A stretch of 64,000 nt of DNA, taken from contig OZ220691.1 of the NCBI GenBank assembly GCA_965116475.1, positions 3,520,001-3,584,000 on the forward strand. The letters run 5' to 3'. The notes under the pieces were generated by a model. That model saw only the letters and a program-made list of their open reading frames with translations, was not told the origin of the DNA and did not search any database. Numbering within the stretch: the stretch's first letter is position 1; the number at the start of each line of letters is the position of its first letter. A program made the position numbers and the translations under genes. Of the stretch, positions 3,481-21,921 are shown piece after piece. The stretch comes from Gemmatimonadota bacterium. Its GTDB lineage: Bacteria; Gemmatimonadota; Gemmatimonadetes; Palauibacterales; Palauibacteraceae.

Positions 3481-5403
3481 GTGAGCGAGGGCGCAAAGGA
3501 GGGCGTGAGCGAACGGCGCGGGATCGTGATCGGCACGGCCGGCCATGTGGATCACGGCAAGACCGCCCTCGTGCGGGCGCTGACGGGGATCGAGACGGAC
3601 CGCTGGCTGGAGGAGCGGAAGCGGGGACTGACGATCGACCTGGGCTTCGCGCGGCTCGACCTCGATCCCGGCCTGGAGACGGGGATCGTCGACGTCCCGG
3701 GGCATGAGGACTTCCTCAAGAACATGCTCGCCGGCGCCACGGGCATCGACGCCCTCCTCCTCGTCGTGGCGGCGGACGAAGGGCCGATGCCGCAGACGCA
3801 CGAACACCTTGCGATCGCGCGTCTCTTGAACATCCGGCGCGGGGTCGTCGCGCTTACGAAGCGCGACCGGGTGGATGAGGACTGGCTCGAGCTCGCGAGC
3901 GAGACGACCCGGGAAGTGCTGGATGAGGATCCCGCGCGGGCGTCATGGGAGATCGTGCCGGTCTCCGCCCTGACGGGCGACGGGATCGAGCCCCTGCGGG
4001 CCGCGCTGCGCAGATCGACGGCGGGGATCCGCGCGCGCCACGTCGATGACCGTTTTCGCCTCCCGGTCGACCGTTCGTTCTCGATCCGCGGTACCGGTAC
4101 CGTGGTGACCGGCACTGTGTGGAGCGGCGCCGTCCGCGTGGGCGACACCGTGAACGTTTTTCCCGGGGGTGACTCGGCCCGCGTGCGCGCGCTCCAGGTG
4201 CACGAAGACCCTCGTCGGCGCGTCACCGCCGGCCGCCGGTGCGCCGTCGCACTCGTCGGCGTCACGCCGGTCGCGGTGGAGCGGGGCAGCGTGCTCGTGG
4301 ACCCGTCCGAGTGGACGCCGAGCGAGCGTCTCGGCGTCCGGGTACGGGCGCTCGGGAGTCGCGACCGGCCTCTCCACCATGGACAGCGTCTCAGGGTCTA
4401 CCTGGGCACTCGTGAAGTCATGGCCCGGCTCCAAACGGTTGATCGCCGGCCCGTCGCACCCGGGGCGACTGCCTGGGCCGTGCTTGCCCTCGAGGCGCCG
4501 CTCCTCGCGCGGACCCGCGACCGGGCCATCCTCCGCTTCTACTCGCCGGTGACGACGATCGGCGGGATACGCGTGGCGGAACCGAACCCGCCGCCCGACT
4601 GGTCGGCGCGGACGGAAGCCTGGCGGCGGATTCTCGATGGCGCCCCGGCCGAGGCGGTCGGCGCGGCCGTAGCGCTGGAGGGCCTGCGCGGGCTCCCCGT
4701 CGCGACATCATCGATCCGCCTCGGATGGCGAGCTCCCACGCTCGAGACGGCCGCCGAGGAGGCCGGCTGCGTGCGCATCGGCGAGCGCTGGTTCGCCGCC
4801 GATGCGGTGGCGGAGGCCATGGAGGTCGTGGAGGAAAGCATGGCCCGCCTCCACGCCGCGGACCGCCGTGCCCCCGGCGTTTCGAAGGAGGCCGTGCGCT
4901 CGGCGATGGCGCCGGTCTGCGATCTCGCACTGGCGGAGACCGCCCTCCGCCGACTCCTCGCGGATCGTCGCCTCCTCGAGCGCGGCCCGCAGCTCGCGCT
5001 TCCGGGCCATGGGCCCCGCCTCACTCCGCGCGAGGAAGAGGGGCGCCGGCTACTCGCCGGGACGATCGAAGCCGCCGGGCTGCAGCCGCCGCTCGTCACG
5101 GAACTGGGGAAGACGGTGCACCTGGACCGTGCCGTGCTCGATGACCTTCTCCGGCTGCTGCAGGAATCCGGCATGACGAAGGCCGTGACGCCCGAACTGC
5201 ACGTCGCCGCCGGGGCTCTGGAGGCGATGGAGGCGCGGGTGCGAGAGCTGCTCGCCGATGGCGCGCCGGCCCCTCCCGCGCGGTTCAAGGAAGCGTTCGG
5301 GCTCTCCCGGAAGTACCTGATTCCGCTCCTCGAATACCTGGACCGGGAAGGCGTGACCCGTCGAACCGCGGAAGGGAGAGTTCTCGCCCGCCCGCCCGGC
5401 TGA
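3481..5403 (+). CDS. selB: Selenocysteine-specific elongation factor (start may be GTG 3505)
   Basis: [30 protein letters not shown]-terminal winged-helix [14 protein letters not shown]. Confidence 0.96.
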
Positions 5404-5426
5404 GCCGGACGCGGCTCAATCCGGGG

Positions 5427-5783
5427 TCAGCCGACGTGGTAGAGGAAACAGCCGCAGTACTCGCACGATTCGACGCGGAGATTCCGATCCGCCTCGGAGG
5501 CGCGGGCCGTGGACACCGCTACGAAGCAGCCGTAGCAGATGCCGTTGATGACCGGCGCGACGACGCGCGGCGCCTTGTCCGCGATGCGGCGATAGCGCTC
5601 CCGGATACCCCGCGTCAGCCGCTCCGCGAGTTCCTCGACCTTCTCGTCGAGCGATCGGATCGCGTCCTCGATCTTGATGTCGAAGACCTCCGCCTCGAGG
5701 TCCGTCAGCGTTCCATCCGTGAGACCCCGACGCTGCATTCGCAGGTCCTGGATCTCAAGCAGCAGTTCGAGTTGCTGGTCCAC
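5427..5783 (-). CDS. Coiled-coil protein with C4 zinc ribbon (DUF164-like)
   Basis: GTG overlapping the ptsN stop; LLEIQDL start; CYGC...CEYC. Confidence 0.8.
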   Translation of the reverse strand: MDQQLELLLEIQDLRMQRRGLTDGTLTDLEAEVFDIKIEDAIRSLDEKVEELAERLTRGIRERYRRIADKAPRVVAPVINGICYGCFVAVSTARASEADRNLRVESCEYCGCFLYHVG

Positions 5784-6427: not shown

Positions 6428-6798
6428 GGGGGCGACACGGCTTCGACGCGTGAACCGGAAGCCGCGGAAGCGTGCCGAGGTGCCCGGGGCCTCGTTAAAC
6501 ACCGGGAAACCTTTAGGTGCCAACGACGGTTTGGCTCTGGCTGCGTAAAACCACGTAGCCCGTCCCCGAGAGGTCCGGGCCCGAGGACCTCCCGACGGAC
6601 GTCGATGAATCGGGCTGGTCACCCCGGCGTGCCGTGAGCCGCGGGTGACGAGAGCACGGCGAGAGCCGCGCGCACGGCTGGTTTCGCAAGGGTTTGTTCG
6701 TGAACCCTCGCGGGACGAGACCTGATCACGGACTACGCACGTAGATGCCGTGGCGGATGGGCTCGCGGACGCGGGTTCGATTCCCGCCGCCTCCACTA
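6428..6798 (+). ncRNA. ssrA: tmRNA; tag peptide (A)ANDGLALAA encoded at 6519-6548
   Basis: 5' GGGGGCGACACGGCTTCGAC; 3' GACGCGGGTTCGATTCCCGCCGCCTCCA; internal tag ORF ending ALAA-stop. Confidence 0.97.
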
Positions 6799-10730: not shown

Positions 10731-10826
10731 GGGAGCGGATGGTGACTGGTGTCGCCTGCGGTCTTCAAAACCGTTACGGGGCGTTCGCGCGTCCCGGGTG
10801 GGTTCGATTCCCACACGTTCCCGCCA
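10731..10826 (+). tRNA. selC: tRNA-Sec (anticodon UCA at 10765-10767)
   Basis: 96 nt; anticodon loop CTTCAAA; long variable arm; T-arm GTGGG-TTCGATT-CCCAC; G discriminator plus CCA; selB lies 5 kb upstream. Confidence 0.95.
10811..10826 (+). repeat. att core CCACACGTTCCCGCCA (tRNA-Sec 3' end)
   Basis: Identical 16-mer at 21400-21415. Confidence 0.92.
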
Positions 10827-10876
10827 GATCATTAGCGAAGTGCTCTTATAACAACGATTTACAGATGTTCAAGCGG

Positions 10877-10903
10877 GCGAGTACCCCACCGGGTACCCCA
10901 AAA
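10877..10903 (+). repeat. Left-end GTACCCCA motifs (x2), putative integrase arm-type sites
   Basis: GCGAGTACCCCA and GTACCCCAAAA; the same motif occurs three times at 21216-21266. Confidence 0.65.
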
Positions 10904-10916
10904 GTGGGAGTGTGAC

Positions 10917-11423
10917 GTGTCCGTGAGATCGCCCCTCCAAGACCCTGGGTCTTTCCGTTCATGGATTCAGGAGATGATCGAGGTGACCGGATTGGAGTGG
11001 GAGCCGAAAACGGTCCATGTCGTTCTCGCAGACCTTCCCTTGATCGCGAAGGCGACGTACTTCAACGCGTGGTTGGCGGGCCAGTTCTTCCGCGAAGATG
11101 ATGTGGGGTGGCTCTCGTCGGTGATCAGCGACATCGACCTGGAGTGGTGGCCGTTCGAGGAGAACGACCTTGGCGTTCTCCGACACCAGATCGAAAGCCA
11201 CTACAACGGCCAGTTTCCGCAAATCATGAGTGCTGCGCACGCGGAATGGACTACGTTCGCCGCCGATGTCCGCATGGCCTTCATCGCCTGCTTCACTGAC
11301 CACGGCTGCCGACGTTGCCCACCTTGGTGCCAAGCTCTCCGAGACGAGCTGGAGGCACGTGCGAACCCCAGCAAAGAACCCAATGACTCGGAGGGTGAGC
11401 CGGAAGCGCCGGCCTCTGGATAA
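10917..11423 (+). CDS. Hypothetical protein (element cargo)
   Basis: 168-aa ORF convergent with the structural operon; non-shadow composition; no recognisable motif. Confidence 0.6.
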   Translation: MSVRSPLQDPGSFRSWIQEMIEVTGLEWEPKTVHVVLADLPLIAKATYFNAWLAGQFFREDDVGWLSSVISDIDLEWWPFEENDLGVLRHQIESHYNGQFPQIMSAAHAEWTTFAADVRMAFIACFTDHGCRRCPPWCQALRDELEARANPSKEPNDSEGEPEAPASG

Positions 11424-11427
11424 GGAT

Positions 11428-11838
11428 CTACCCGCGCTTTCGCTGCCGGTCTTCGAGGGCAACCTCAGGATTGAGCCGGCGGCGGTCGATCCCGGCGAAA
11501 GGCCGGGTCTCTCCCGGCTGACGCTGGATGGCCAGCCACAGATCCGCCGCAGCGCGCCCGTACTTCTTCTCCAACCGCCCGCGCTTCAGCGCCAGCCTGG
11601 AGGCCTCCCGGCAGCGAGCGCAGAGACTGAAGTCCGCATCCTCGCGTTCCCGACCGCACCGGCACAGGCCGGCGGCACGGCGTGCTGCGTGGCTCTCGGC
11701 GATCGTGCCTCGATACGTTTCCCGGCAGGTCTTGCAGTAGATCCCGTGGGTGGCCGGAGCGCCGCCGCAGTTCGCACACAACCCATCGCGTTTCCAGCTG
11801 CGTCTCTTGTCCCGCACCCAGTCTGCGGCGTAGCTCAC
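11428..11838 (-). CDS. Cys-rich putative zinc-binding phage protein
   Basis: GTGA overlap with upstream gene; GLCANCG...YCKTC and GLCRCG...LCARC repeats. Confidence 0.7.
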   Translation of the reverse strand: MSYAADWVRDKRRSWKRDGLCANCGGAPATHGIYCKTCRETYRGTIAESHAARRAAGLCRCGREREDADFSLCARCREASRLALKRGRLEKKYGRAAADLWLAIQRQPGETRPFAGIDRRRLNPEVALEDRQRKRG

Positions 11839-12188
11839 CTCGTGCGGGCTGCGAGCCTGGCGGCCTCGCTCTTCACGAGCGCGGTGGCGATGGCCTGACT
11901 GACGGCCTCCACGCCCTCGATGGATGGCTCCAGCCACTCGTACTTGCCCCCCAAGTGCTCGGCGACCTCGAGGAACAGGCCGGGGCGTTTGCCGGCTCCC
12001 ACGCGGGCCAACGTCGTGCTCACAACTTCGTAGGAGATCGAGCGGGCGGTCACACCCGTGTCCCTCGCGATCCGCCTGCGGGCGAACCTGACGACCTCCT
12101 CGGCCAGCTCCTCAACGATCTTCTCGGACATGCGGTCGAGCGCCCGATGGTGCTGCCGGAGGTTGGACTCGAACTTGACCGGCGTCAT
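11835..12188 (-). CDS. HK97 gp10-like neck/tail-completion protein
   Basis: ARRRIARDTGVTARSI...FLE...WLEPSI resembles the gp10 DTG.L..SI/F.E/.L.PA pattern; ATGA overlap. Confidence 0.6.
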   Translation of the reverse strand: MTPVKFESNLRQHHRALDRMSEKIVEELAEEVVRFARRRIARDTGVTARSISYEVVSTTLARVGAGKRPGLFLEVAEHLGGKYEWLEPSIEGVEAVSQAIATALVKSEAARLAARTR

Positions 12189-12619
12189 ATCCCCAGCCTC
12201 TCCCGGATCGCCGCCGCCGAGTAGACGCGCGACCGGAAGACGATCCCGGCGTAACGGTGGCGACCGGCGTCGGCGATGTCCCAGCCGCCGGCGAGGGTGC
12301 GCCACGGGCCGCTCTGCAGGTCGGAGGTTCCAAGGTGGAAGCCGCGGAAGAATCGCTGGATGGCCTCGCGGACTTGGGCGGCGTCTCCCGGATCCCGGAA
12401 GGTCTCGACGGTGACGGCGACGCGGGCCAAGTAGCCCGGACTTTGGTCGATGGTCTCGAGGTCGCGGGAGCCGCCATCCTCCACAATGACGCGGATCTCG
12501 TCGGAGGTCTTCTCGAGTGGGCGCGAGGGCTGGCCGACGATCACGGTCACCACGTAATCCCCCGAGAACGCGGAGTCCAAACCGTCCCGAATCGTGGCCA
12601 GCACCTCGGCCTCAATCAT
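12185..12619 (-). CDS. Putative tail-terminator-like protein
   Basis: 144 aa, position among neck genes, alpha/beta pattern; family call is inference. Confidence 0.45.
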   Translation of the reverse strand: MIEAEVLATIRDGLDSAFSGDYVVTVIVGQPSRPLEKTSDEIRVIVEDGGSRDLETIDQSPGYLARVAVTVETFRDPGDAAQVREAIQRFFRGFHLGTSDLQSGPWRTLAGGWDIADAGRHRYAGIVFRSRVYSAAAIRERLGI

Positions 12620-12956
12620 CGATCTCCAGCCAGACCCGCACCGTGCCGCCGCGCTGAGGCTCGGCCTCGACCACCTTCCAGATCCGATCTCCGGACTCGA
12701 GCGTCACGTCCTCGGCGGTGACGTCACCCGTCCAGTCGCTGGGCATGAGATGGGCGGAGGTCTTCGATCTGGTCTCGCCGCCCGGCTGGGCGTCCTCGAA
12801 GAAGCGCGCCGAGGTGACGATGGCGCGCGTCTCGCGTGCCTCCAGTAGCGTTCCGGACATCTCCCTACCCATGGCGTCCAGCGCACCGCGTTCGCGCCGC
12901 GTGAGGGTCGCGGGGACGCCCAGCGCCTCGATCAGCGCGGGAGCCGGGGCTCTCAT
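12612..12956 (-). CDS. Putative head-closure protein
   Basis: 114 aa, beta-rich; ATLTRR...DAMGRE...DRIWKVV pattern typical of stopper proteins; coupled to portal. Confidence 0.55.
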   Translation of the reverse strand: MRAPAPALIEALGVPATLTRRERGALDAMGREMSGTLLEARETRAIVTSARFFEDAQPGGETRSKTSAHLMPSDWTGDVTAEDVTLESGDRIWKVVEAEPQRGGTVRVWLEIDD

Positions 12957-13984
12957 GCCAGTCCCGCCTTCTCCAGTGCCTCATCCAGAGACAGGCCGCT
13001 CTCGACGAACTGCTTCAGCGCGCGGCCTCGGGCGGCGAGATCGGACGCGGCGAGACCGCCGAAGGAGAACTCCAGCGAGGTCTCCAGCACGCGGGCGATC
13101 TCGTTCTGGACGCGCACTGCGACCGGCGCGACGCCGAGGAAGACGAACTGCCGGTAATCCTCCCTGCGCGTGGTCCCGTCTCCACCCGGCATCACGAGCG
13201 AAGCCGGGACGCCTGCGGCGCTGGCCACGGTCGAGATCGCATCGCGCCTCAGCGCGATCAGCGAGTCCGGAGGGTTCGCGCCCAGCCTGGCTGGCACGAG
13301 ATCGCGCCGTGGCGCTGAACCCGCGTCGCCCCAGCCGCCAGCTACGGTCTCCGTGAGGACGGTGCTCCCCTTGGCGTCTCGGATGTCGTCTCTGAGCGTG
13401 TCGAGATCGCTTGTCTCCGGTCCCTGCGGAACCGGGAGGAGATGGGCCGCCACGCCGCCGGCTTCTTGGCCCAGCCGCATCTCGAGGGCCGAGAGGAGAT
13501 CTCCCGAGAGACCGGCCAAGGGCGACAGGCTGCGCCACGGCTCGGCTGCTCGCGGTGCCCACATGAGGTGGATGACCGAGTCGCGAGGCATCCATCGCGT
13601 CTGGATCTTCGACGGGGCGGACGTGGTGACGTGGTACCGCCACGACGCGGGAGACGGGCCGCCCCAGACCGTCCAACTGCTCGCCACCGACAGCATCGGC
13701 GGGACGTCGAAGGCCAGGACGATCTCTCCCTGCAGGATGAGCTCCCGGCCGACGAGATCCAGCACCTCGGGCGTCACCAGCATCTTGGCGAGTTCGTCGC
13801 CCTCGACCTCGGCCGATGACAGCGCCCTCGCCCAGAGATCGCCGAGCGCCTGTGCGGTCCCGGTCTCGTTGACGCGACCTGCTGGGCTCTCGGAGCCGGA
13901 CGCCGACGCGGCGATCAGAGAGACCAGCGCATCGGTGTACGAACTCCGAACTTCCGCCGTCTTCCGCTGCCACGGGAGCCTCAT
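12953..13984 (-). CDS. Phage portal protein
   Basis: 343 aa; ELILQGEI, DSVIHL, WRSLSPL, VASAAGVPASLV resemble HK97-type portal motifs. Confidence 0.8.
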   Translation of the reverse strand: MRLPWQRKTAEVRSSYTDALVSLIAASASGSESPAGRVNETGTAQALGDLWARALSSAEVEGDELAKMLVTPEVLDLVGRELILQGEIVLAFDVPPMLSVASSWTVWGGPSPASWRYHVTTSAPSKIQTRWMPRDSVIHLMWAPRAAEPWRSLSPLAGLSGDLLSALEMRLGQEAGGVAAHLLPVPQGPETSDLDTLRDDIRDAKGSTVLTETVAGGWGDAGSAPRRDLVPARLGANPPDSLIALRRDAISTVASAAGVPASLVMPGGDGTTRREDYRQFVFLGVAPVAVRVQNEIARVLETSLEFSFGGLAASDLAARGRALKQFVESGLSLDEALEKAGLA

Positions 13985-14286
13985 AGCGCGAGACCTCGGC
14001 GCTTGACCCACTGAGACAGCAAAGACGCCGCGCCAGACGCTCGCAGGGCAGCTCTGGAGGCCGCGACGTACTCGGTCTCCACGTCACCCACCCGGACGCG
14101 CCTGGCGGCCGCTGGGGCGTCTCTTAGGTACGCCGCCACCCGGATCGCGGCTTCGTTCTCCACCGCCGCAGGCGGTTCTCCCTCGCCGGTGTGTTTCTCG
14201 ACAAGACCGGCGGCGACCTCGGCAAGACGCGTTGCGTTGTCACCTCCCCCGAGGGCCGAGGCCACCACCGATCGCTCTACAGCCAT
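13981..14286 (-). CDS. Head-tail connector (gp6-like)
   Basis: 101 aa, helical; A.GLVEKHT...PAAVENEAAIRVAAYL...AASLLSQW; AGGAGG RBS. Confidence 0.7.
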   Translation of the reverse strand: MAVERSVVASALGGGDNATRLAEVAAGLVEKHTGEGEPPAAVENEAAIRVAAYLRDAPAAARRVRVGDVETEYVAASRAALRASGAASLLSQWVKRRGLAL

Positions 14287-15215
14287 ATGCGCCTCCTGCG
14301 GCGGGCCGGGCGCGTGATCTCCAGCGGAGCGAGTTCTCCCGTTTCGCCGGTCACCAGCGCCAGCTCGATTGCGCGGACGTCCATCTCGGAGACGTCGTAG
14401 AGGTCTCCCGCGACCTCGGCCACCGAGGTCTCCTCCGGTGCCCACGGGCGCACGCTCCAGAATCCCGTCTCGGAGGAATCGAGGAAGGCGCGTCCGGCGT
14501 CGTTGTCGGTGATCTGGTCGATCTCGATCCGGAGTTCATCGTCGAGAACCCGGAGCCTCAGTCCGGCACCGGTGGCGGCGACCGGCTCGGAGAATCTTCC
14601 AGACATGAACGCCGTGATCGTCCGCCGTCCCTCGGCTGCCTCGCGGAGCGCTTTGTCCAGCGCCTTCCGCCCGATGCGGATCCGCGCACAGCCGGTCTTG
14701 CACCTGCACGGCAGCTGGCGGCCCAGCGGCACCCGACCGGAGACCCGCGTCCCGCCGATCGTGCGCCGGCGCAGCTCCACCCGGTTCGGAAACACCGGCG
14801 AATCCACCAATCCCAGACCGAGGAGACGTCCGCGCTCGATGACGCGGACTCCGCCCTCGGTCTGCTCGCTCAGCGCATCGAACTCGAGACTCGTGCCCGT
14901 GAGCTTCCCGGCGGCCACCAGCGCTCGGATCTCGGGCGTGATCTGCGCGCGGAACTCCATGCCGCCGGCGGTGGTGTCCCGGAACCGGAGAGAGCCCTCT
15001 GGGTGGAAGCTGGAGTCGATCCCATGTCGGAAGTCGTGCTGGACGTTCAAGAGGACGCGCACCTCGGACGCTGGCCCGAACGCGCCGGGCTCGAACCGCT
15101 CCCCAAGGCCGTGCGGCGTGTTCGCGGGCGGGGCGGTGATCCCGGGATCGAACACCATCCCGGAGATCTCGCCGGCGTCCGCGCTCAGCCCGGAGACGAA
15201 ACGGAACTCGCTCAC
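14277..15215 (-). CDS. HK97-family prohead protease with a second degenerate protease-like domain
   Basis: ERFEPGAF, LNVQHD (His), GTSLEF (Ser), LGLVDSPVF. Confidence 0.75.
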   Translation of the reverse strand: MSEFRFVSGLSADAGEISGMVFDPGITAPPANTPHGLGERFEPGAFGPASEVRVLLNVQHDFRHGIDSSFHPEGSLRFRDTTAGGMEFRAQITPEIRALVAAGKLTGTSLEFDALSEQTEGGVRVIERGRLLGLGLVDSPVFPNRVELRRRTIGGTRVSGRVPLGRQLPCRCKTGCARIRIGRKALDKALREAAEGRRTITAFMSGRFSEPVAATGAGLRLRVLDDELRIEIDQITDNDAGRAFLDSSETGFWSVRPWAPEETSVAEVAGDLYDVSEMDVRAIELALVTGETGELAPLEITRPARRRRRIWL

Positions 15216-15454
15216 CAGAGGGCGAGGATCGTGGCCGTCGAGGAGGCGCGCACCGCCGAGACGGCGACCGGAATCACCATGATCGACGCCGTCACTGTGA
15301 GCGCCGGCGCGTCCGCATCATCGTCCGGCAACCGGATCGTCAGATCGCCGTCGCTGAGGACGATGAACGCCCGCGCCGGGGGATCGAACACGCTCTCCTG
15401 CCCGGCGACGGTCGCCTCGCTCGCCTGCGCCGAGTAGATGGCCCAACGGCTCAA
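15212..15454 (-). CDS. Putative capsid spike-base/decoration protein (RcGTA Rcc01079-like)
   Basis: 80 aa; RAFIVLSDGDLTIR...IPVAVSAVRASSTATILALW; TTG overlaps capsid stop. Confidence 0.6.
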   Translation of the reverse strand: MSRWAIYSAQASEATVAGQESVFDPPARAFIVLSDGDLTIRLPDDDADAPALTVTASIMVIPVAVSAVRASSTATILALW

Positions 15455-16692
15455 GTGACGAACTTCAGCCTGGCGAAGTTGGACGCCCGCGGGAGCTTGA
15501 ATCCCCAGCTGTACTGCAACGTCAGCGAGATCTCATCCGAGGCTGCCTTGGTGTATGGATCTCGAATCAGCCGGCCCTCCCGCCAGACGCACGCGACGCC
15601 GGCGTTCACGATCCCGCGCTTGCGTCCGATGAAAGCGCCGAACTTGCCGTTCGATGTGGCCGTCTCGATGTCGCCGCGCACCATCCAACTGAGGCCGTTC
15701 GCCATCAGGAATTGCCTCAGCGTCATGTTGTCGGCGGCCGAGTTGATGACGGTGGAGTGCCACAACGTGTTCGCGCCGACGGAGGCCACGATCGCCAGAT
15801 CTCCGGGGCTGGCGGCGTGCTTTCCGTCGATCAGCTCGGCGAACTTCACCAGCGTCTCCGGCCCCTTGATCTTGTCCGCCTGCTTGATCGTCTTCTCGAC
15901 CATGTCGGCGGCGGTCTGGAGACCGGTGATGTCGGCGGCGTTCTCGTTCGCCCCGTCGTCTCCCAGGAAGACCGCGCGGTCGATCCCCTCGGCCATCGCC
16001 ATCCGCAGATCGCGCCGGAGCGCCTGCTCGAGGCCGGGGATCCTGTCCGCGTCGACGCCGTTGAACACGGCGCGTGCGCGGTTGCCGGTCGGCTTGATCT
16101 CGGTGACGCCGATCGTCCACGCGGCGTCTGCCGCGTCCTCGGCCCGGCCGCGCTGCGCCGCCGAGGCCCCCGCCGTCGTGACCGGGTAGCTCGCGATCCC
16201 CGGCGCGCAGGAGGCGAACGTCACGCCCAGATGCATCGCGGCGGTGTCAGCGAACAGCCGGTCGATCCATGGGCGCTGGACGACCGTCGACTCGGCGTCC
16301 GTCGAGGCGCGAACCTCGGCTGGCGTCGGCTCGTCGAGAAGGAGCTCCAGCGGGAATGACCGGCGGCCCATGCCGAACGCGTCGTTCAGCTCGCCGGCGG
16401 CTCCGTCCACGCCGCGTCCGTCCATCGCGGCCTCGAAGTAGCCGCCCACGTCCACCCGGCGGCGAATGGCCCGGATCTCGGCCGCCTCGCCGTCCTCCAC
16501 TGTGGGCTCCGGCTCCTCGGCCTGCGCGGCGATCAGCGCCCGGCGCTTGGTCTCGACGGAGCGCAGCTCGGCGGTGAGCTTGTCCACCTCCTGCTGCTGC
16601 TCGTCGGAGAGATCTCCGGCGGTCTGGCCGAGATCGTTGAGTTGCTGCCGGAGCTCGGACGAACGGAGCTCGGCGCGTTGCAGATCGGTCAT
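15451..16692 (-). CDS. Major capsid protein, HK97 fold, with N-terminal coiled-coil scaffold domain
   Basis: 413 aa; helical N-terminal ~100 aa; LRRDLRMAMAEGIDRAVFLGDD, IRDPYT, NFARLK. Confidence 0.85.
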   Translation of the reverse strand: MTDLQRAELRSSELRQQLNDLGQTAGDLSDEQQQEVDKLTAELRSVETKRRALIAAQAEEPEPTVEDGEAAEIRAIRRRVDVGGYFEAAMDGRGVDGAAGELNDAFGMGRRSFPLELLLDEPTPAEVRASTDAESTVVQRPWIDRLFADTAAMHLGVTFASCAPGIASYPVTTAGASAAQRGRAEDAADAAWTIGVTEIKPTGNRARAVFNGVDADRIPGLEQALRRDLRMAMAEGIDRAVFLGDDGANENAADITGLQTAADMVEKTIKQADKIKGPETLVKFAELIDGKHAASPGDLAIVASVGANTLWHSTVINSAADNMTLRQFLMANGLSWMVRGDIETATSNGKFGAFIGRKRGIVNAGVACVWREGRLIRDPYTKAASDEISLTLQYSWGFKLPRASNFARLKFVT

Positions 16693-16810
16693 TCTCTCGT
16701 CCCTTCGCGCGGCCAGGCAGCCACGCTCCTTCCGGGACGAAGAAGGGCCGCCATAGCTCAGTTGGTGCGTTCTCCAATTCGCTAAGGCGACCCCGAAAGG
16801 TCTCCGCAAT

Positions 16811-17062
16811 TTAGGGTCCGGCCAGCTCCTCTACAAGCTGCCTCCAGCCGGCGTCTTCCTCCCGTCGGTGGCGGGCGAAATGGCACGAGACGCAGAGCGT
16901 CCGGAGGTTCGATGGATCGTCGGTGCCGCCGTCTCTCAGTGGCGTCTCGTGGTGGACCTCGAGCCGTCCTGGCTGGCCGCAGTCCCGGCAGCGGTGGCCG
17001 TCTCTCTGGAGGATCTTCCGGCGCAACTGAGCACCGGCGCGGCCTCTCAGACGACGGCGGAT
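16811..17062 (-). CDS. HNH endonuclease (gp74-like, packaging-associated); start uncertain
   Basis: RDGHRCRDCG...LEVHH...GGTDDPSNLRTLCVSCH. Confidence 0.85.
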   Translation of the reverse strand: MRRRLRGRAGAQLRRKILQRDGHRCRDCGQPGRLEVHHETPLRDGGTDDPSNLRTLCVSCHFARHRREEDAGWRQLVEELAGP

Positions 17063-18519
17063 CGAAGTCTCCGAGACGGACGGGACCGACGCCGATGCGC
17101 CTCGGCGACGCACAAGGCCAACGCCACGGCGAGATCGTCTCTGCGCCGGAGGGTGGTACGGCGGATCTTGGCGTTCCCGGCCTCGTCCGTAGCCGTCTTG
17201 GCGTTCGCCAGGCACACCCTCAGGGCGAGATTCGTTGGTGCGGCCAGCCAGTCTGCAGCGGCAAGCCGGAGGCGGCGCAGATCGTTCGCGCCGTCCTTGA
17301 AACCCATCCCGCGCAGCTTCAGCGGCACCGACTGACCGAGCGTGGCCAACGCCTCGCGGATCGAGGCCTCCCGCCACCGGTCGGCTACGATCATCGCCGG
17401 GACGCCCCACCGCTCGAACGCCTCGGTCAGCACACCCCCGACATCGACCTCGAACGTCCCGTGCAGGGACAGCTCCTTCCTGGCTCGCATCTTCTCATAC
17501 AGGGAGCCGACGTTGTGCTCCTTTCCGCGCCGCATGAGGTCTGGATCTCGCGGGAAGACCAGAAAGCCGTCCGCGGCTCCCGTGGCCGGCCAGCAGACGG
17601 CCGCGCCGGTGGCCTGCGTGGTGGAGAGATCGAGACCGAGCACCGGGCGACCCGAGCGCAGCGCAGTCCGTCCCTCGCAGCGCGTCCACGTCCCGGCGGA
17701 CAAGACCTGCTCCTCGGCTACGCCGATCCCGCCGAGGTTCAAGTGGAGCTGCAGGTATCTGGCCAGCGCCTCGGGACTCTCTCTGGCCAGCTTCGCCTGC
17801 TTCTTCACCTCGCGGGCGAGGTGCGGCCAGAACTTCATCGATGGATTCGCTCTGTGCATGGCCGCCGCGCGAAATGGATCCTCGTCTTCCTCGGCCGCGT
17901 AGCAGATCGCCCGCTCCTTCTGGAGTTCGGCCTCGAAGGGATGGCCGGAGCCTGCCGGCGGTCGCGTCCCGGTGTAGATGATCCGCGCCTCCATCTTGGC
18001 CTTCGCCGTGTCGAGCGCGGCGATCATCTCGTCCACCGTTGGCCAGCTCGTGACCTCGTCGCAGACGATGAGCGCGGGCCGCAGACCCATGGCGCGCTTC
18101 GGGTCGCTTCCGATGGCCAACACCCGGCGGCCCGTCTTGAGGTCTCGGATCTCCGAATGCTGGAGGCTGTCGGCGATCCTGTACCGCTTCCGGTCTCCCA
18201 GCTTCACTACCTGCTCCAGATACCGGCGGGTGTCTTGGTAGACGATCCGCGTCTGCCGGTGGCTCGCGGCGACGAGAATGATGTCGGAGCCCTTCGGGGC
18301 TAGCTCCAGAACGGGATCGAAGTACGCTCCCGCCACGATTGACGCCCAAGCGCTTTTTCCGTTGGCGCGGGCCATGCTCAGCGCGAAGTCGCCGGGAGTA
18401 TCGAGACGCTTCCACGCTTTTCTCTGCCACGGCATCGGCTGGAGCGCCCTCCCGGCCATCGGACCGTCCAGAACGGTCAGACCAGATGCCCACCGGGAAA
18501 CCTTCGTCGAGGTCAACAT
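17047..18519 (-). CDS. Terminase large subunit
   Basis: LQPMPWQ, Walker A ARANGKS, Walker B LIVCDE, RANPS, LGLDLS, DDLAVALAL. Confidence 0.9.
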   Translation of the reverse strand: MLTSTKVSRWASGLTVLDGPMAGRALQPMPWQRKAWKRLDTPGDFALSMARANGKSAWASIVAGAYFDPVLELAPKGSDIILVAASHRQTRIVYQDTRRYLEQVVKLGDRKRYRIADSLQHSEIRDLKTGRRVLAIGSDPKRAMGLRPALIVCDEVTSWPTVDEMIAALDTAKAKMEARIIYTGTRPPAGSGHPFEAELQKERAICYAAEEDEDPFRAAAMHRANPSMKFWPHLAREVKKQAKLARESPEALARYLQLHLNLGGIGVAEEQVLSAGTWTRCEGRTALRSGRPVLGLDLSTTQATGAAVCWPATGAADGFLVFPRDPDLMRRGKEHNVGSLYEKMRARKELSLHGTFEVDVGGVLTEAFERWGVPAMIVADRWREASIREALATLGQSVPLKLRGMGFKDGANDLRRLRLAAADWLAAPTNLALRVCLANAKTATDEAGNAKIRRTTLRRRDDLAVALALCVAEAHRRRSRPSRRLRSAVV

Positions 18520-18618
18520 ACCGGAGGCTCTGCTGCAGAAGCGTGACTACGCCAACGGTGTCCGGCGGTCACGGAGGGCTCCGAACAGGGGTCCCCGAGG
18601 AGCTGGGGCGGGCCACAT

Positions 18619-19065
18619 TCATTCGCCCGGCAGGCGCGGTACGTAGACGGCCCATAGCCACGGCGCTCCGTCACGGCGCGCGGCCGTCACGCGATGTCGT
18701 CCAAGCAGCACTTCAACCGGGCGCGAACTATCGTCGCCCAGGACGACGATCGGCGGGCCGTACTGACCACCGGACAGGTTCTGGAGCCGCTTCTCGTCCA
18801 AGCGCGATACGTCGAATTCCATGATGCGAGTCAGCGGTAGCCCTCTCCTTGGGAGCGTCTCCGACATCGCCTCCATGATCCGCGTCTTCGTGTTGGCGAC
18901 AGCCGCCGCCACGTCCGGCCAGTCTTCAGCGGTAGTGTCTTGCTCTTCGAGGAACCACCGCTCCAACCGGCGAAACCAACGGAGCAATTCGTCGGCTTCG
19001 CAGTCTTCACCTTGCAGCCGGTTCTCCACTTGGTCCCGGTATCGGAGGATGCTGGTATTGGACAT
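18619..19065 (-). CDS. Protein with C-terminal ParB/Srx-like domain
   Basis: PPIVV...VLLGRHRVTAARRDG resembles the ParBc G.HR..A motif. Confidence 0.65.
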   Translation of the reverse strand: MSNTSILRYRDQVENRLQGEDCEADELLRWFRRLERWFLEEQDTTAEDWPDVAAAVANTKTRIMEAMSETLPRRGLPLTRIMEFDVSRLDEKRLQNLSGGQYGPPIVVLGDDSSRPVEVLLGRHRVTAARRDGAPWLWAVYVPRLPGE

Positions 19066-19400
19066 CACCCCAGACCGTACTCGTCCCACGCATGGACGAT
19101 CTCGAAGAGCGCACCGATCTCAGACTTCGTGAGCGCCCGGAGGTCGTCCAATCCACCGTCACCTTCGACCGACTTTGGTATCAGACGCCCGAGTTCGCCC
19201 GCCCACTCCAGCAGCTGCGCGACCGACACGCCGTGCCGTTCACAGCGCCCGTACACGTAGTACACCTGCTTCTCGGTTGGTGACTCCGGGTGCAACGCAT
19301 TCTTCGCGATGATCGTCTTATCTGTGGACTCTACCGCATCCCGCCAGCTCCCTGTGGGCTGCCCAGAGCTGCCGTTGTCTCCCTCACGTGTCCCTGTCAT
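19065..19400 (-). CDS. Hypothetical phage protein (111 aa)
   Basis: GAGGAG RBS before ATG; stop overlaps the next start. Confidence 0.6.
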   Translation of the reverse strand: MTGTREGDNGSSGQPTGSWRDAVESTDKTIIAKNALHPESPTEKQVYYVYGRCERHGVSVAQLLEWAGELGRLIPKSVEGDGGLDDLRALTKSEIGALFEIVHAWDEYGLG

Positions 19401-19973
19401 CGATCTCCTCCCTCTCTCCAGTCGCCGGGGCGCACCTCTCCCTATTTTGTTCTCGGCCTCGCCGGTTCTCCCTCTAATTGTCTGAAGCGATGACCGGCCC
19501 GGTGAGGGACAGCAGCAGACCGAGGGCCAGCCCGGGCCGTTGCGAAAGGGAGGCATGGTTTCGTCTCCCACGGTATCCGAGTTGGTGTCTCGGCCTGCTG
19601 AACATGACCTGGCGGAGCCGGGCATAGCAGGCTGTGGGAGCTGCTTCCCTCCGGCCTCTCGACCGGAGCCAGCCGCCTCGCTCTCCCACTTCGACCTCGA
19701 GGCCTCATCTCGGCGCTATTGGCTGGATGCCCTTCCCGGTGCGCCACTCTCTCGCATTCCCGCGCCGGTGGGTGGACCCTCTCCTCCACGGTTCAGCGTT
19801 CCAACGATCCCACGCATAACACGACCGGCCGATTCTCGCCAATGGTTCGGTCAGCGTCGGAGGATGTGAATCATGGATGCAAGAAACCCCGAGACGAGAG
19901 GTCTTTTGGGAGAGCTTCGCCTCGGGGCTTCCTGCACCGGCCCAAGGAAGAATCCTCGAGCGCGTCCACAATC

Positions 19974-21197
19974 TCAGTCGCTTGTCACCGGCGCAACGTA
20001 CTCGGCCCATGCCTCCATCACCGGACGCCGACGCTCGAGGAGATCGCTGCGCTGGTAGGCCCGCACGACGGCGTTTCGCTCGACATGACCGAGGATCGCC
20101 TCGGCCACTGCGAAATCGACGCCCGTATCTTCACACCAACTGCGCATGGAGGTTCGCAAACCGTGCGGCGTGGCCGGGACGTCGAGACGCCTGAGGAGCT
20201 GGAGAAACGCCATCTTGCTGAGGGGCCGATCAGCGCCAGCGCGCGGGCGAGAGGAAGGGAAGACCCAACCGGTCCCGCCCCAGCGCGCCTGGGCGTCTTC
20301 TAGCACCCTCAGGGCGCAATCTGCGAGCGGTACGCGGTGAGACCTACCTGACTTCGTCCGGAGGCTCGGAATCGTCCAGATCGCGTTCTCCAGGTCGATC
20401 TCGTCCCACGTCATCTCTCGGACCTCGCCGGTCCGAACTCCCGTCAGCGCCAAGAACGTGAACGCCGAGCGCGTCACGCGGTCGGCGGTGGACGCCTCGA
20501 CCATCTCGAGCAGGCCGGCGATCTCGCTGTGGTGCAGGGCCGGGTGGTGACGCTTCACGCGGCTGGCGTGACGCGGCAGCACCGTGAGGAGGTGGCGGCC
20601 CGCCGGGTTGTCGGTTCGGTGTCCCATCGCGACGGCCATCTCGAACGTCCTGGCCAGCCGAGCGCGGACCCTCCGGGCGGTCTCCTGCTTCTCCTCCCAG
20701 AAGCCGCGGGCCTGAAGCACCCGCGCCACGTCGGCGGACGTCACCTCGTCAACGCGCATCGCGAGCAGCGGATCGGCGTATCTGGTCACCGAGTTTCGCC
20801 ACTGGCGCTCGCTATCGGGAGACCTCCAGCGGGGTTTCTCCCGGGAGATCACCGCCTCGAAGACCTCGCCCACCGTCGGGACGACCCCCTTCGGCTGCTC
20901 GGTGGCCGGAGGCTTAGCCTTCCGCCGGCGCGGATCCTCTCCGGCTTCGACCGCCGCGAAGTTCCGGAACGCCTGTTCTCGGGCCTCCCTGAGGCTCACC
21001 GCCGGCCACGTTCCCAAGCCGAGGGTGGTTTGCTTGCCGTTGATCTTCACCTTCTGTATCCACCGGCGTCTGGCGGTTCGGTCCGACGTGGGCCGGACGA
21101 GGAGTGAAAGGCCGGCGTATCCGACGGCGTACTTTCGTGGGCCGCCTAGCGTCCCGATCTTCTTCTCGGTGAGGCGCACCAAGGGGCGTTTCGGCAT
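19974..21197 (-). CDS. int: P4-like tyrosine integrase with arm-binding domain
   Basis: LGLGTWPAVSLREAR arm domain; catalytic R (TGVRTGE), K (TKSGR), HGLR, LGH, Y (RAYQRS). Confidence 0.95.
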   Translation of the reverse strand: MPKRPLVRLTEKKIGTLGGPRKYAVGYAGLSLLVRPTSDRTARRRWIQKVKINGKQTTLGLGTWPAVSLREAREQAFRNFAAVEAGEDPRRRKAKPPATEQPKGVVPTVGEVFEAVISREKPRWRSPDSERQWRNSVTRYADPLLAMRVDEVTSADVARVLQARGFWEEKQETARRVRARLARTFEMAVAMGHRTDNPAGRHLLTVLPRHASRVKRHHPALHHSEIAGLLEMVEASTADRVTRSAFTFLALTGVRTGEVREMTWDEIDLENAIWTIPSLRTKSGRSHRVPLADCALRVLEDAQARWGGTGWVFPSSRPRAGADRPLSKMAFLQLLRRLDVPATPHGLRTSMRSWCEDTGVDFAVAEAILGHVERNAVVRAYQRSDLLERRRPVMEAWAEYVAPVTSD

Positions 21198-21215
21198 GGG
21201 GATCTCCGTTCGCTA

Positions 21216-21266
21216 TGGGGTACTCGTGCCTGCGAGTACCCCAAAACATGCCCCAAGTACCCCAAA
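21216..21266. repeat. Right-end GTACCCCA motifs (one inverted, two direct), putative arm-type sites
   Basis: TGGGGTACTCG (21216-26) and CGAGTACCCCA (21233-43) form a perfect 11-bp inverted repeat; GTACCCCAAA at 21257-66. Confidence 0.65.
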
Positions 21267-21399
21267 CTCGCAACTCTAGAGGAGGCATGGAGTTCCGCAT
21301 GAACATCCGACAACAGGTTCCGTATAATACATGATATCAACGAGTTGTGAATCATCCAGAAGTCCAATGAACATCAAGGGATTCGCGATTGTGCGATCA

Positions 21400-21415
21400 C
21401 CACACGTTCCCGCCA
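21400..21415 (+). repeat. att core, duplicated tRNA-Sec 3' end
   Basis: CCACACGTTCCCGCCA identical to 10811-10826, preceded by CGAT as in the tRNA. Confidence 0.92.
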
Positions 21416-21420
21416 CCCTC

Positions 21421-21921
21421 GTGCTTGCGGCCGCGCTTCTGTCCGGGCTGGCCCTGGACCCGTTGCCGCTGCGCGCGCAGGATCCGCCGCCTCCCGTCGT
21501 CCCCGACTCGGCCGCCGCCGAAACGAGCCCTGTCGCCGACACGACGGGCCGGCGCCCGCCCATCTCCCCCCTCGGCGCCTTCGGACGCTCCCTGGTCCTT
21601 CCGGGCTGGGGACAACTGGAGGTCGGACGCCCCGCCCGCGGCGCTTTCTACTTCGCCGCCGAGTCCGTCTTTCTGTTCATGGTCTTCAAGTCCGACGCGC
21701 GGCTCTCCGCCGCGAAGGAGGAGATGCCGCCGAACGAAGAGCGGATCTCCAACCGCACGGGGCAGCGGGAGAACTGGATCGTTCTGGCCGGGTTCTTCGC
21801 CTTCCTGAGCGGCCTCGACGCCTGGGTGTCCACGCAGTTCTGGGACTTCGAGCCCTCGATCGGTCCGCCCGCCGATGGGTCCGTCGGGATCGCGCTCGGT
21901 TTCAAGGTCGATTTCCCCTGA
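21421..21921 (+). CDS. Exported/membrane protein, DUF5683-like (start uncertain)
   Basis: Signal peptide; SLVLPGWGQ motif; LDAWVSTQF. Confidence 0.7.
   Translation: MLAAALLSGLALDPLPLRAQDPPPPVVPDSAAAETSPVADTTGRRPPISPLGAFGRSLVLPGWGQLEVGRPARGAFYFAAESVFLFMVFKSDARLSAAKEEMPPNEERISNRTGQRENWIVLAGFFAFLSGLDAWVSTQFWDFEPSIGPPADGSVGIALGFKVDFP

Follow-up and report, generated by a model that had tools for sequence, protein, structure and literature searches.

How does a genetic element of only about 10 kb, which encodes a phage head and no recognisable tail, make a living in a bacterial chromosome? The question is raised by the selenocysteine tRNA (tRNA-Sec) gene of a Gemmatimonadota bacterium of the family Palauibacteraceae (assembly GCA_965116475.1), around which we analysed a stretch of 64,000 nucleotides, hereafter called the window (contig OZ220691.1, positions 3,520,001 to 3,584,000). 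Behind tRNA-Sec, window positions 10827-21415 constitute a precise insertion of 10,589 bp. This element is apparently an integrated, intact phage satellite of the capsid-forming kind, and it is part of a large and apparently undescribed group of ~10-kb elements present in several phyla. We consider it likely that it represents a new lineage of satellites that form their own capsids and borrow their tails.

The tRNA-Sec gene (10731-10826, plus strand) was identified with ARAGORN and by its match to Rfam RF01852 (79.7 bits). Its final 16 nucleotides, CCACACGTTCCCGCCA, form the attL core (10811-10826, plus strand), and an exact copy of this tRNA 3' end forms the attR core (21400-21415, plus strand), the two being nested in a 25-nucleotide repeat with 88% identity. 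We searched for the left flank in 36 genomes of the same genus and compared both flanks for the 11 loci that were returned with flanks (L067-L077). The site is empty in all 11: the right flank, 85-91% identical to that of the window, directly abuts the tRNA end from position 21416 onward, which defines 10827-21415 as a precise insertion.

The element encodes a tyrosine integrase of the P4/CP4-57 type (19974-21197, minus strand) with arm-binding, central and catalytic domains (Pfam Arm-DNA-bind_3, Phage_int_M and Phage_integrase, with matches in PHROGs as well). Two direct copies of a putative arm-type motif, AGTACCCCA and GGTACCCCA, are found at 10880-10900 (plus strand), 54-74 bp inside attL, and three copies of AGTACCCCA, one of them inverted, at 21216-21264, 136-184 bp inside attR. 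With at most one mismatch the motif occurs seven times in the window, and five of these occurrences, including all four exact copies, flank the att cores, no farther than 74 bp from attL or 184 bp from attR. Judged from the sequence, such clustering is the pattern of attP arm-type sites. The element entered the 3' end of tRNA-Sec through a P4-type integrase, with arm-type sites flanking the core.

All genes of the element but one lie on the minus strand, to which the coordinates of this and the next paragraph refer. Their order is TerL (large terminase), HNH, capsid, an 80-residue protein, protease, Ad1, portal, Hc1, a 144-residue protein, a gp10-like protein and a zinc-ribbon protein. From the capsid gene through the last gene of the operon, start and stop codons overlap (TTGA, GTGA, ATGA), indicating translational coupling, and all open reading frames (ORFs) of the element are full length. 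Families were assigned with Pfam, PHROGs and NCBIfam profiles; several long ORFs were given later starts, and the refined coordinates are used here. TerL (17047-18519; phrog_9, E 2.5e-44; PF20441 and PF03354) is 24-25% identical to the large terminases of HK022 and of Gordonia and Arthrobacter phages. Its 3' end overlaps by 67 nucleotides the gene of a 100-residue HNH endonuclease (16811-17113; PF01844, E 3.3e-12; phrog_589, E 2.4e-20). The major capsid protein (15451-16692; 413 residues; phrog_617, E 2.2e-5) is of the HK97 family, PF05065 being matched by 12 of 40 members of its own family, and its N-terminal region is a coiled coil. The prohead protease (14277-15215; TIGR01543, E 0.0063; PF04586 matched by homologues) combines an S78/HK97-type N-terminal domain with a C-terminal extension of ~160 residues that is common to five relatives, and the portal protein (12953-13984; 343 residues) matches PF04860 (E 3.8e-10), phrog_12 and TIGR01537.

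The neck follows. The 101-residue, gp6-like head-tail adaptor Ad1 (13981-14286) has 26 homologues in related loci. In an alignment of 24 members (21 of the 26 homologues, the window protein and positional counterparts from L016, L025 and L030), four PHROG head-tail adaptor families match 6, 5, 2 and 1 members, a single member possibly matching more than one family, and the window protein itself matches none. Head closure protein Hc1 (12612-12956; phrog_82, E 2.8e-5) is followed by the 144-residue protein (12185-12619), which has no assigned family and is taken as a neck component by its position between Hc1 and the gp10-like protein. The latter (11835-12188; PF04883, E 9.1e-5; phrog_5, E 1.7e-4; ATGA overlap) resembles HK97 gp10, and its family match is of the neck or tail-completion type (Ne1/Tc1 class), not of the tail-tube type. 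Between capsid and protease, the 80-residue protein (15212-15454) resembles the head-spike base of the Rhodobacter capsulatus gene transfer agent (RcGTA; Rcc01079 family) with a score below the cut-off (NF048002, E 6.9e-5, 23.1 bits for a cut-off of 28), and its putative role as a spike base is a lead only. In three relatives, a small P-loop gene (AAA_16/AAA_33-like; L010:11213-11695, L037:11221-11736, L044:11268-11702) sits right after the capsid gene, in the position of this 80-residue protein gene.

Searches of the element's ORFs against Pfam, PHROGs, NCBIfam and PADLOC yielded no tail, tape-measure, baseplate, lysis, primase/helicase, AlpA, small-terminase or defence family. The initial annotation, made from the sequence of the window, had described a 10.6-kb element bounded by a 16-bp att repeat in tRNA-Sec, with an intact integrase, a coupled head and neck operon, and none of the aforementioned tail, lysis, replication, AlpA or small-terminase genes recognisable, all of which the repeat, the domain matches and the profile searches bear out. 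At the level of individual genes its head and neck set stands, whereas several long ORFs had been started too early, and the gene upstream of that for TerL is revised to one for a ParB/sulfiredoxin-fold protein.

The same annotation had also offered a mobile head module akin to gene transfer agents. The idea that the head genes are a domesticated module of this kind, serving the host, draws on the small predicted capsid and on the weak match to the RcGTA spike-base family. RcGTA has a small HK97-type head, and its spike-base protein forms pentamers on the capsid pentons (PMC7296036), a likeness that would extend to the element if its 80-residue protein were an Rcc01079-like spike base. Unlike the element, with its integrase, att sites and free unit-length relatives (see below), RcGTA is non-mobile, carries genes for a tail and packages DNA of its host, and the two gene orders are dissimilar. 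Gene transfer agents are non-mobile and vertically inherited; here the insertion is missing from the corresponding site of all 11 congeners compared, it comes with an integrase, att sites and arm sites of its own, and a capsid relative is present in 2 of 24 other same-genus genomes searched, both distant. The proposal of a GTA-like module, in its mobile form as well, is thus at odds with these features and with the free circular relatives, and we hold a domesticated module to be exceedingly unlikely.

How widespread are such elements? At least 1,183 relatives of the capsid protein are present in a collection of 5.8 billion proteins. The best 120 are 53-84% identical to it, 36 of them sitting on contigs of 8.3-11.6 kb (counted from the table), and the closest among the matches listed (84%) is on a 6,801-bp contig. 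A scan of one genome per species gave 54 loci, many within megabase chromosomes, in Alpha- and Gammaproteobacteria, Gemmatimonadota/Longimicrobiales, Acidobacteriota, Chloroflexota, Binatia and Syntrophobacterales. Most of them share a recurrent order, integrase, 2-3.5 kb, TerL, HNH, capsid, protease, adaptor and portal, and three same-genus loci keep the core order as well. Thirteen loci are bounded by direct repeats at the end of a tRNA gene (Leu, Thr, Lys, Pro, Met, Arg, Ser or Ala) and measure 9,302-11,958 bp, or 13,231 bp for one that carries an IS21 insertion sequence (IS); at four further loci the repeats are less certain. Among viral contigs, a scan with the single capsid protein returned nothing, and one with the capsid alignment gave two loci. 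The literature search, in which subscription journals were not covered, found no description of this family.

Free forms exist in the family. The same-genus contig G017:C2 (loci L006/L007; 21,563 bp) repeats a 9,605-bp unit in tandem 2.24 times, with 99.6% identity at this spacing. It keeps the core order and encodes a VapE-like helicase, is devoid of an integrase, and its capsid protein, 28% identical to that of the window, belongs to a distant sister clade; it is an episomal or concatemeric relative. The IMG/VR contig L064 (10,194 bp) has an exact terminal overlap of 99 bp, with TerL continuous over the junction, and a Replicase+PriCT_1 gene, and L013 is a stand-alone contig of 9,576 bp. In L064, positions 3484-5778 hold an open frame of 764 residues with no family match and an adaptor-like segment at its start; no protease was detected in that contig, and the frame may be mis-called or encode a fused large protein. 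The 7,885-bp contig L052, with a terminal overlap of 98 bp and a very divergent capsid of the same family, is possibly a circular relative of still smaller size.

The non-core ORFs of the relatives were scanned with Pfam (131 ORFs of 17 repeat-bounded elements, i.e. the 13 tRNA-anchored ones and the four on weaker repeats) and with PHROGs (114 ORFs), and L010, L013, L064 and two same-genus elements were scanned with both. No tail tube, tape measure, sheath, baseplate, fibre, holin, endolysin or small terminase was found in the Pfam and PHROGs sets. The classes identified include adaptor, head-closure and tail-completion/Neck1 proteins as well as IS transposases, and neck genes of the tail-facing side recur across these tail-less elements. 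Extra tail-completion/Neck1 genes matching Phage_tail_S (P2 gpS-like, E 7.6e-27) and phrog_222 were noted at L010:15944-16591 (minus strand) and L019:7558-8037 (plus strand), one of them upstream of the TerL gene.

The core genes of the family are under purifying selection, with ratios of nonsynonymous to synonymous substitution rates (dN/dS) of 0.13-0.27 for capsid, portal and TerL (pairs of relatives with dS up to ~1.03 and TerL of the same type). These data bear on a common explanation for head-only phage clusters, namely a prophage in decay whose genes for tail, lysis and replication are gone. IS insertions or a missing TerL in some relatives (L034, L044, L049) would fit such decay. Against it stand the uniform size of ~10 kb and the intact att sites of the 13 tRNA-anchored relatives, the free circular or concatemeric forms of unit length, the purifying selection, and the full-length, coupled ORFs of the window; the relatives whose non-core ORFs were examined (the 17 repeat-bounded elements, L010, L013, L064 and the two same-genus elements) included no longer one with tail genes. 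The prophage-remnant explanation is largely refuted, and we give it very little credence. The proposal in the initial annotation of a compact, intact, capsid-forming and tail-less element of the satellite type, rather than a deletion remnant, has therefore held up: the homologous elements are consistently ~10 kb and without tail genes instead of longer full prophages, their core genes do not evolve neutrally, and both the empty tRNA-Sec site and the shared gene set that it had suggested looking for are found in related genomes.

If the element is not a remnant, could it be a self-sufficient minimal virus that needs no helper, with no conventional tail or with one made from its unassigned small proteins? 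Searches of 50,697 phage records with tblastn gave no match for the capsid or the portal protein, and the lineage is therefore not simply a stripped-down known phage. This, together with the free circular forms, the lack of a helper in the genome (see below) and the spike-base-like head decoration, is compatible with a minimal virus. However, the longest unassigned ORF of the window has 168 residues, a lysis gene is absent, and the element carries Ad1, Hc1 and gp10-like proteins, whose known function is to connect a head with a tail assembled apart from it. We know of no tail-less bacterial virus with the HK97 fold, and we regard a minimal virus as improbable.

[quoted passage not shown] SatelliteFinder defines these by 11 core components, of which 9 are found in the weakest published class (PMC10085698). 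Judged by function, 8 of the 11 are present in the element, and the forbidden components are all missing. The components present are the integrase, HNH and TerL, portal, prohead protease and capsid, and Ad1 (by family) and Hc1 (by phrog_82). A regulator (AlpA, MerR or Stl), a primase-replicase and a small terminase were not recognised in the window element, the first two being present in relatives; the forbidden components, tail and holin, are lacking. Like cf-PICIs such as EcCIEDL933 and KpCIDSM30104, it is a small integrative element in the ~10-15 kb range with its own HK97-type capsid, portal, protease, TerL and HNH, it has a head-tail adaptor and a connector and no tail or holin genes, and its relatives hold AlpA and replication genes beside the integrase. 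It differs from them by its gene order (TerL, HNH, capsid, protease, adaptor, portal, closure), whereas that of cf-PICIs is HNH, small terminase (TerS), TerL, portal, protease and capsid, and by its additional gp10-like neck or tail-completion gene. Its family also differs in hosts, which include Gemmatimonadota, Chloroflexota and Acidobacteriota among others, while the host account of a 2023 survey places cfPICIs in Proteobacteria and Firmicutes only (PMC10085698). On the basis of function and gene content, we file the element as a variant that works like a cf-PICI, and not as a demonstrated member of the published family.

AlpA, HTH_17 or excisionase-like helix-turn-helix proteins are encoded in six elements of the family (L010, L019, L021, L028, L030 and L048), and replication genes were identified in 12 relatives with Pfam and PHROGs. 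As many relatives carry AlpA and replication genes, the family has the cf-PICI architecture. The proposal of a distinct minimal family devoid of AlpA and of a replicon therefore does not hold, since relatives with the same core carry these genes; their absence is a trait of this member and some others, or a failure of recognition.

The second option deserves scrutiny, and we rate at somewhat below even chances that the element is a satellite with its own replicon, which borrows only tails and lysis functions. According to this view, an initiator or regulator has escaped recognition and would be one of its unassigned proteins, namely the 111-residue, the zinc-ribbon or the 168-residue protein, or the ParB/sulfiredoxin-fold protein with a 573-bp non-coding region. 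In this position, about half of the relatives examined hold replication genes of widely differing kinds (AAA_25/DnaB helicases, a primase-helicase, Replicase+PriCT_1, VapE, and O-like or HTH_36 initiators). The replication module is often swapped and hard to recognise; small winged-helix initiators of 140-230 residues are found in L019, L021, L034 and L038. The non-coding region (19401-19973, minus strand) is unusually long for a 10.6-kb element. It contains no convincing ORF and has no Rfam match, the Rfam scan of the element yielding tRNA-Sec only; a hairpin with 20-nucleotide arms lies at 19878-19936, right behind the integrase stop codon. From these sequence features, the region is a candidate control, origin or packaging region. 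Iteron-like repeats were not found in it, just scattered repeats of 8-16 nucleotides, which speaks against a replicon, as does the finding that the candidate ORFs have no family match at E <=5 (Pfam) or E <=1 (NCBIfam).

The 111-residue orphan (19065-19400, minus strand), the first gene after the non-coding region, has a GGAGG ribosome-binding site and an ATGA overlap with the next gene. A single homologue was found among 5.8 billion proteins, 81% identical and encoded on a 9,996-bp contig. The next gene codes for a 148-residue protein (18619-19065, minus strand), which occupies the small-terminase position and consists of an N-terminal three-helix bundle and a C-terminal ParB/sulfiredoxin-fold domain with a DGRHR motif. 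Its 26 relatives among 1.84 billion representative proteins share an invariant P..G.HR..A pattern, and its profile matches SbnI and ParB among PDB sequences. A fold prediction based on the alignment has a predicted local distance difference test (pLDDT) score of 93 and supersedes a single-sequence model (pLDDT 57.7). Using Foldseek, the C-terminal domain matches ParB, sulfiredoxin, PadC and Noc (E ~2e-3, probability 1.0), and ParB/sulfiredoxin among viral proteins (E 1.2e-4); these matches indicate that the protein is not a typical small terminase.

At the other end of the element, the last operon gene (11428-11838, minus strand) encodes a Cys-rich, double zinc-ribbon-like protein of ~136 residues (weak DZR matches, E 0.02). 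Its GTG start overlaps the stop codon of the gp10-like gene (GTGA), and the open frame extends to 11937. Convergent with the operon and beside attL, a 168-residue ORF (10917-11423, plus strand) is possibly a cargo gene. Its codon-position GC pattern is better than that of an overlapping minus-strand ORF of 167 residues, and it has no match in Pfam, PHROGs, NCBIfam or PADLOC. PADLOC gave no match for any of the six accessory ORFs. In phmmer searches of 56 related loci (E <=0.01), the 111-, 148-, 80-, 144- and 168-residue proteins, Hc1, the gp10-like protein and the overlapping 167-residue ORF have no homologue and the zinc-ribbon protein has two weak matches (E 3.5e-4 and 5.3e-4), whereas capsid, portal, TerL, HNH, protease and Ad1 do have homologues there.

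Returning to a capsid-forming satellite that borrows its tails, a plausible life cycle can be sketched from the roles of these families in HK97-like phages. After excision, the single coupled operon would build a small HK97-type procapsid from the capsid protein, the S78 protease, the portal and possibly a penton spike base. TerL and the adjacent HNH endonuclease would fill the capsid with one genome of ~10.6 kb, presumably by cos-type packaging, Ad1 and Hc1 would close the head, and the 144-residue and gp10-like proteins would form a tail-facing neck that docks to a tail. Given the genes that the element lacks, a helper phage would have to supply tails and lysis, perhaps also replication and induction. 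The narrow size range (~9.3-11 kb) is compatible with a small head that restricts genome length.

Which tails can be used would depend on the divergent neck genes. The heads of cf-PICIs are released without tails but filled with DNA; they then acquire phage tails, and the adaptor and connector determine the choice among these (10.1101/2025.02.11.637232); these two proteins are the variable part of cf-PICIs (PMC10085698; 10.1101/2025.02.11.637232). In the window element, the neck genes are the most divergent part, which would be in line, by analogy, with such a role in tail choice and fits the suggestion in the initial annotation that these genes set tail compatibility. A bolder version of this scheme would have self-encapsidating 'mobile heads', independent of known phages and of any one helper, that form heads filled with DNA but lacking tails and whose neck and tail-completion proteins act as a universal adaptor for the tails of unrelated phages. 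It would explain the occurrence of one capsid family in at least six bacterial phyla, many members of which apparently share marine or sponge communities, but we find it rather doubtful.

Is a helper present in the same cell? In the closed 3.62-Mb genome, phrog_9 detects the element's own TerL only and phrog_2 has no match. Without a second large terminase in this closed genome, a helper, if needed, is not resident. Pfam searches of the genome for TMP, Terminase_6N, TerL_ATPase, Phage_capsid and sheath returned nothing; they are insensitive, as they also missed the element's own TerL and capsid, and phrog_9 serves as the positive control. No paralogue of any element protein was counted in the genome, a separate integrase being described below. 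A 19-kb contig with a split phrog_2 TerL (G017:C3) was considered as a helper and dropped, as the single large ORF nearby with named matches looks chromosomal (xanthine-dehydrogenase-like). In the contigs of two sequencing runs from two studies (X1 and X2), the element is in its integrated form with a depth equal to that of its flanks, and loose ends at 10826 do not match the right flank of the window.

Several observations weigh against the interpretation as a tail-borrowing satellite. No helper phage was seen, and neither an attP joint nor a same-species attB joint was seen in the X1 and X2 contigs, which cannot show rare forms. No small terminase was recognised anywhere in the family in the non-core ORF scans, and the packaging mechanism is consequently only a deduction. 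Several assignments are based on weak scores (2.8e-5 for Hc1, 9e-5 for the gp10-like protein, 0.006 for the protease, and below the cut-off for the spike base), and the capsid profile has no match among PDB sequences at E <=0.01. As six ORFs (those of 111, 144, 148, 168, ~136 and 80 residues) are without a firm function, an unrecognised regulator, initiator or small terminase may be among them. Finally, the capsid tree (50 rows) is largely ordered by host phylum, with four label changes for a minimum of three and the Chloroflexota in one clade with a support of 98, so that frequent transfer across phyla is not shown.

In that tree, the window capsid is on a long branch (best identity 58%), with the two same-genus elements in a distant sister clade. 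Modules have been exchanged between elements. Capsids of L032 and L033 are 89% identical while their large terminases are 28% identical, and such sharp differences in TerL between elements with near-identical capsids indicate that the terminase module is exchanged within the family. Over the pairs L032/L033, L012/L034 and L017/L054, capsid identities are 72-89% and TerL identities 28-37%.

Other satellites share some traits of the element. Like the marine minimalist chromosomal islands inducible by phages (PICMIs) of Vibrionaceae, it has a reduced gene content, PICMIs not being known to have replication genes of their own. It differs from them in that it encodes a whole head, PICMIs being described as having no capsid or capsid-remodelling genes and using helper capsids (PMC10803314). 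Marine integrative mobile elements encapsidated in virions (VEIMEs) have an integrase, AlpA and primase/helicases, form concatemers and integrate in tRNA genes, and the vast majority are reported to have no capsid-like structural genes (10.1101/2022.07.26.501625). The concatemeric contig G017:C2 is reminiscent of them, but unlike most VEIMEs the family described here has capsid genes. The element resembles satellite P4 in its P4-type integrase with an arm-binding domain, its tRNA-type integration and its ~11-kb genome; the 11.6-kb genome of P4 is packed in a T=4 head. In contrast with the element, P4 lacks genes for capsid, portal and terminase, encodes its own primase, and uses the capsid protein of its helper P2, whose head it only resizes.

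If the interpretation as tail-borrowing satellites is correct, the element and its relatives extend the capsid-forming strategy to Gemmatimonadota, Chloroflexota, Acidobacteriota and other environmental phyla. The 2023 survey reports that the cfPICI capsid and TerL arose three times from phages (PMC10085698). The distinct gene order, the lack of a recognisable TerS, the neck genes and a capsid family not found in sequenced phages would be consistent with another independent origin of the combination of head building and tail borrowing. The family would provide a large natural series in which terminase, replication and neck modules are swapped around a conserved head core, suited to asking what governs the specificity of packaging and the compatibility with tails. 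In uncultured marine symbionts, which have no genetic tools, these elements are likely to act as vehicles of gene transfer.

A second integrase is encoded elsewhere in the same genome (~2,673,401-2,674,507); it is 39% identical to that of the element and may mark another island. The remainder of the window holds housekeeping genes, including metK, recO, selB, greA, mla, mrp and cytochrome oxidase genes. The selB gene (3481-5403) is 5 kb upstream of tRNA-Sec, the element thus being located in the selenocysteine locus, and a transfer-messenger RNA gene with the tag ANDGLALAA is found at 6428-6796. Near attR, a promoter-like site is present within the element at 21351-21324 (minus strand). The first host ORF past attR (21331-21921, plus strand) appears, as called, to start inside the element; its start in the empty site is likely the GTG at about 21420, and the insertion may have changed its upstream region.

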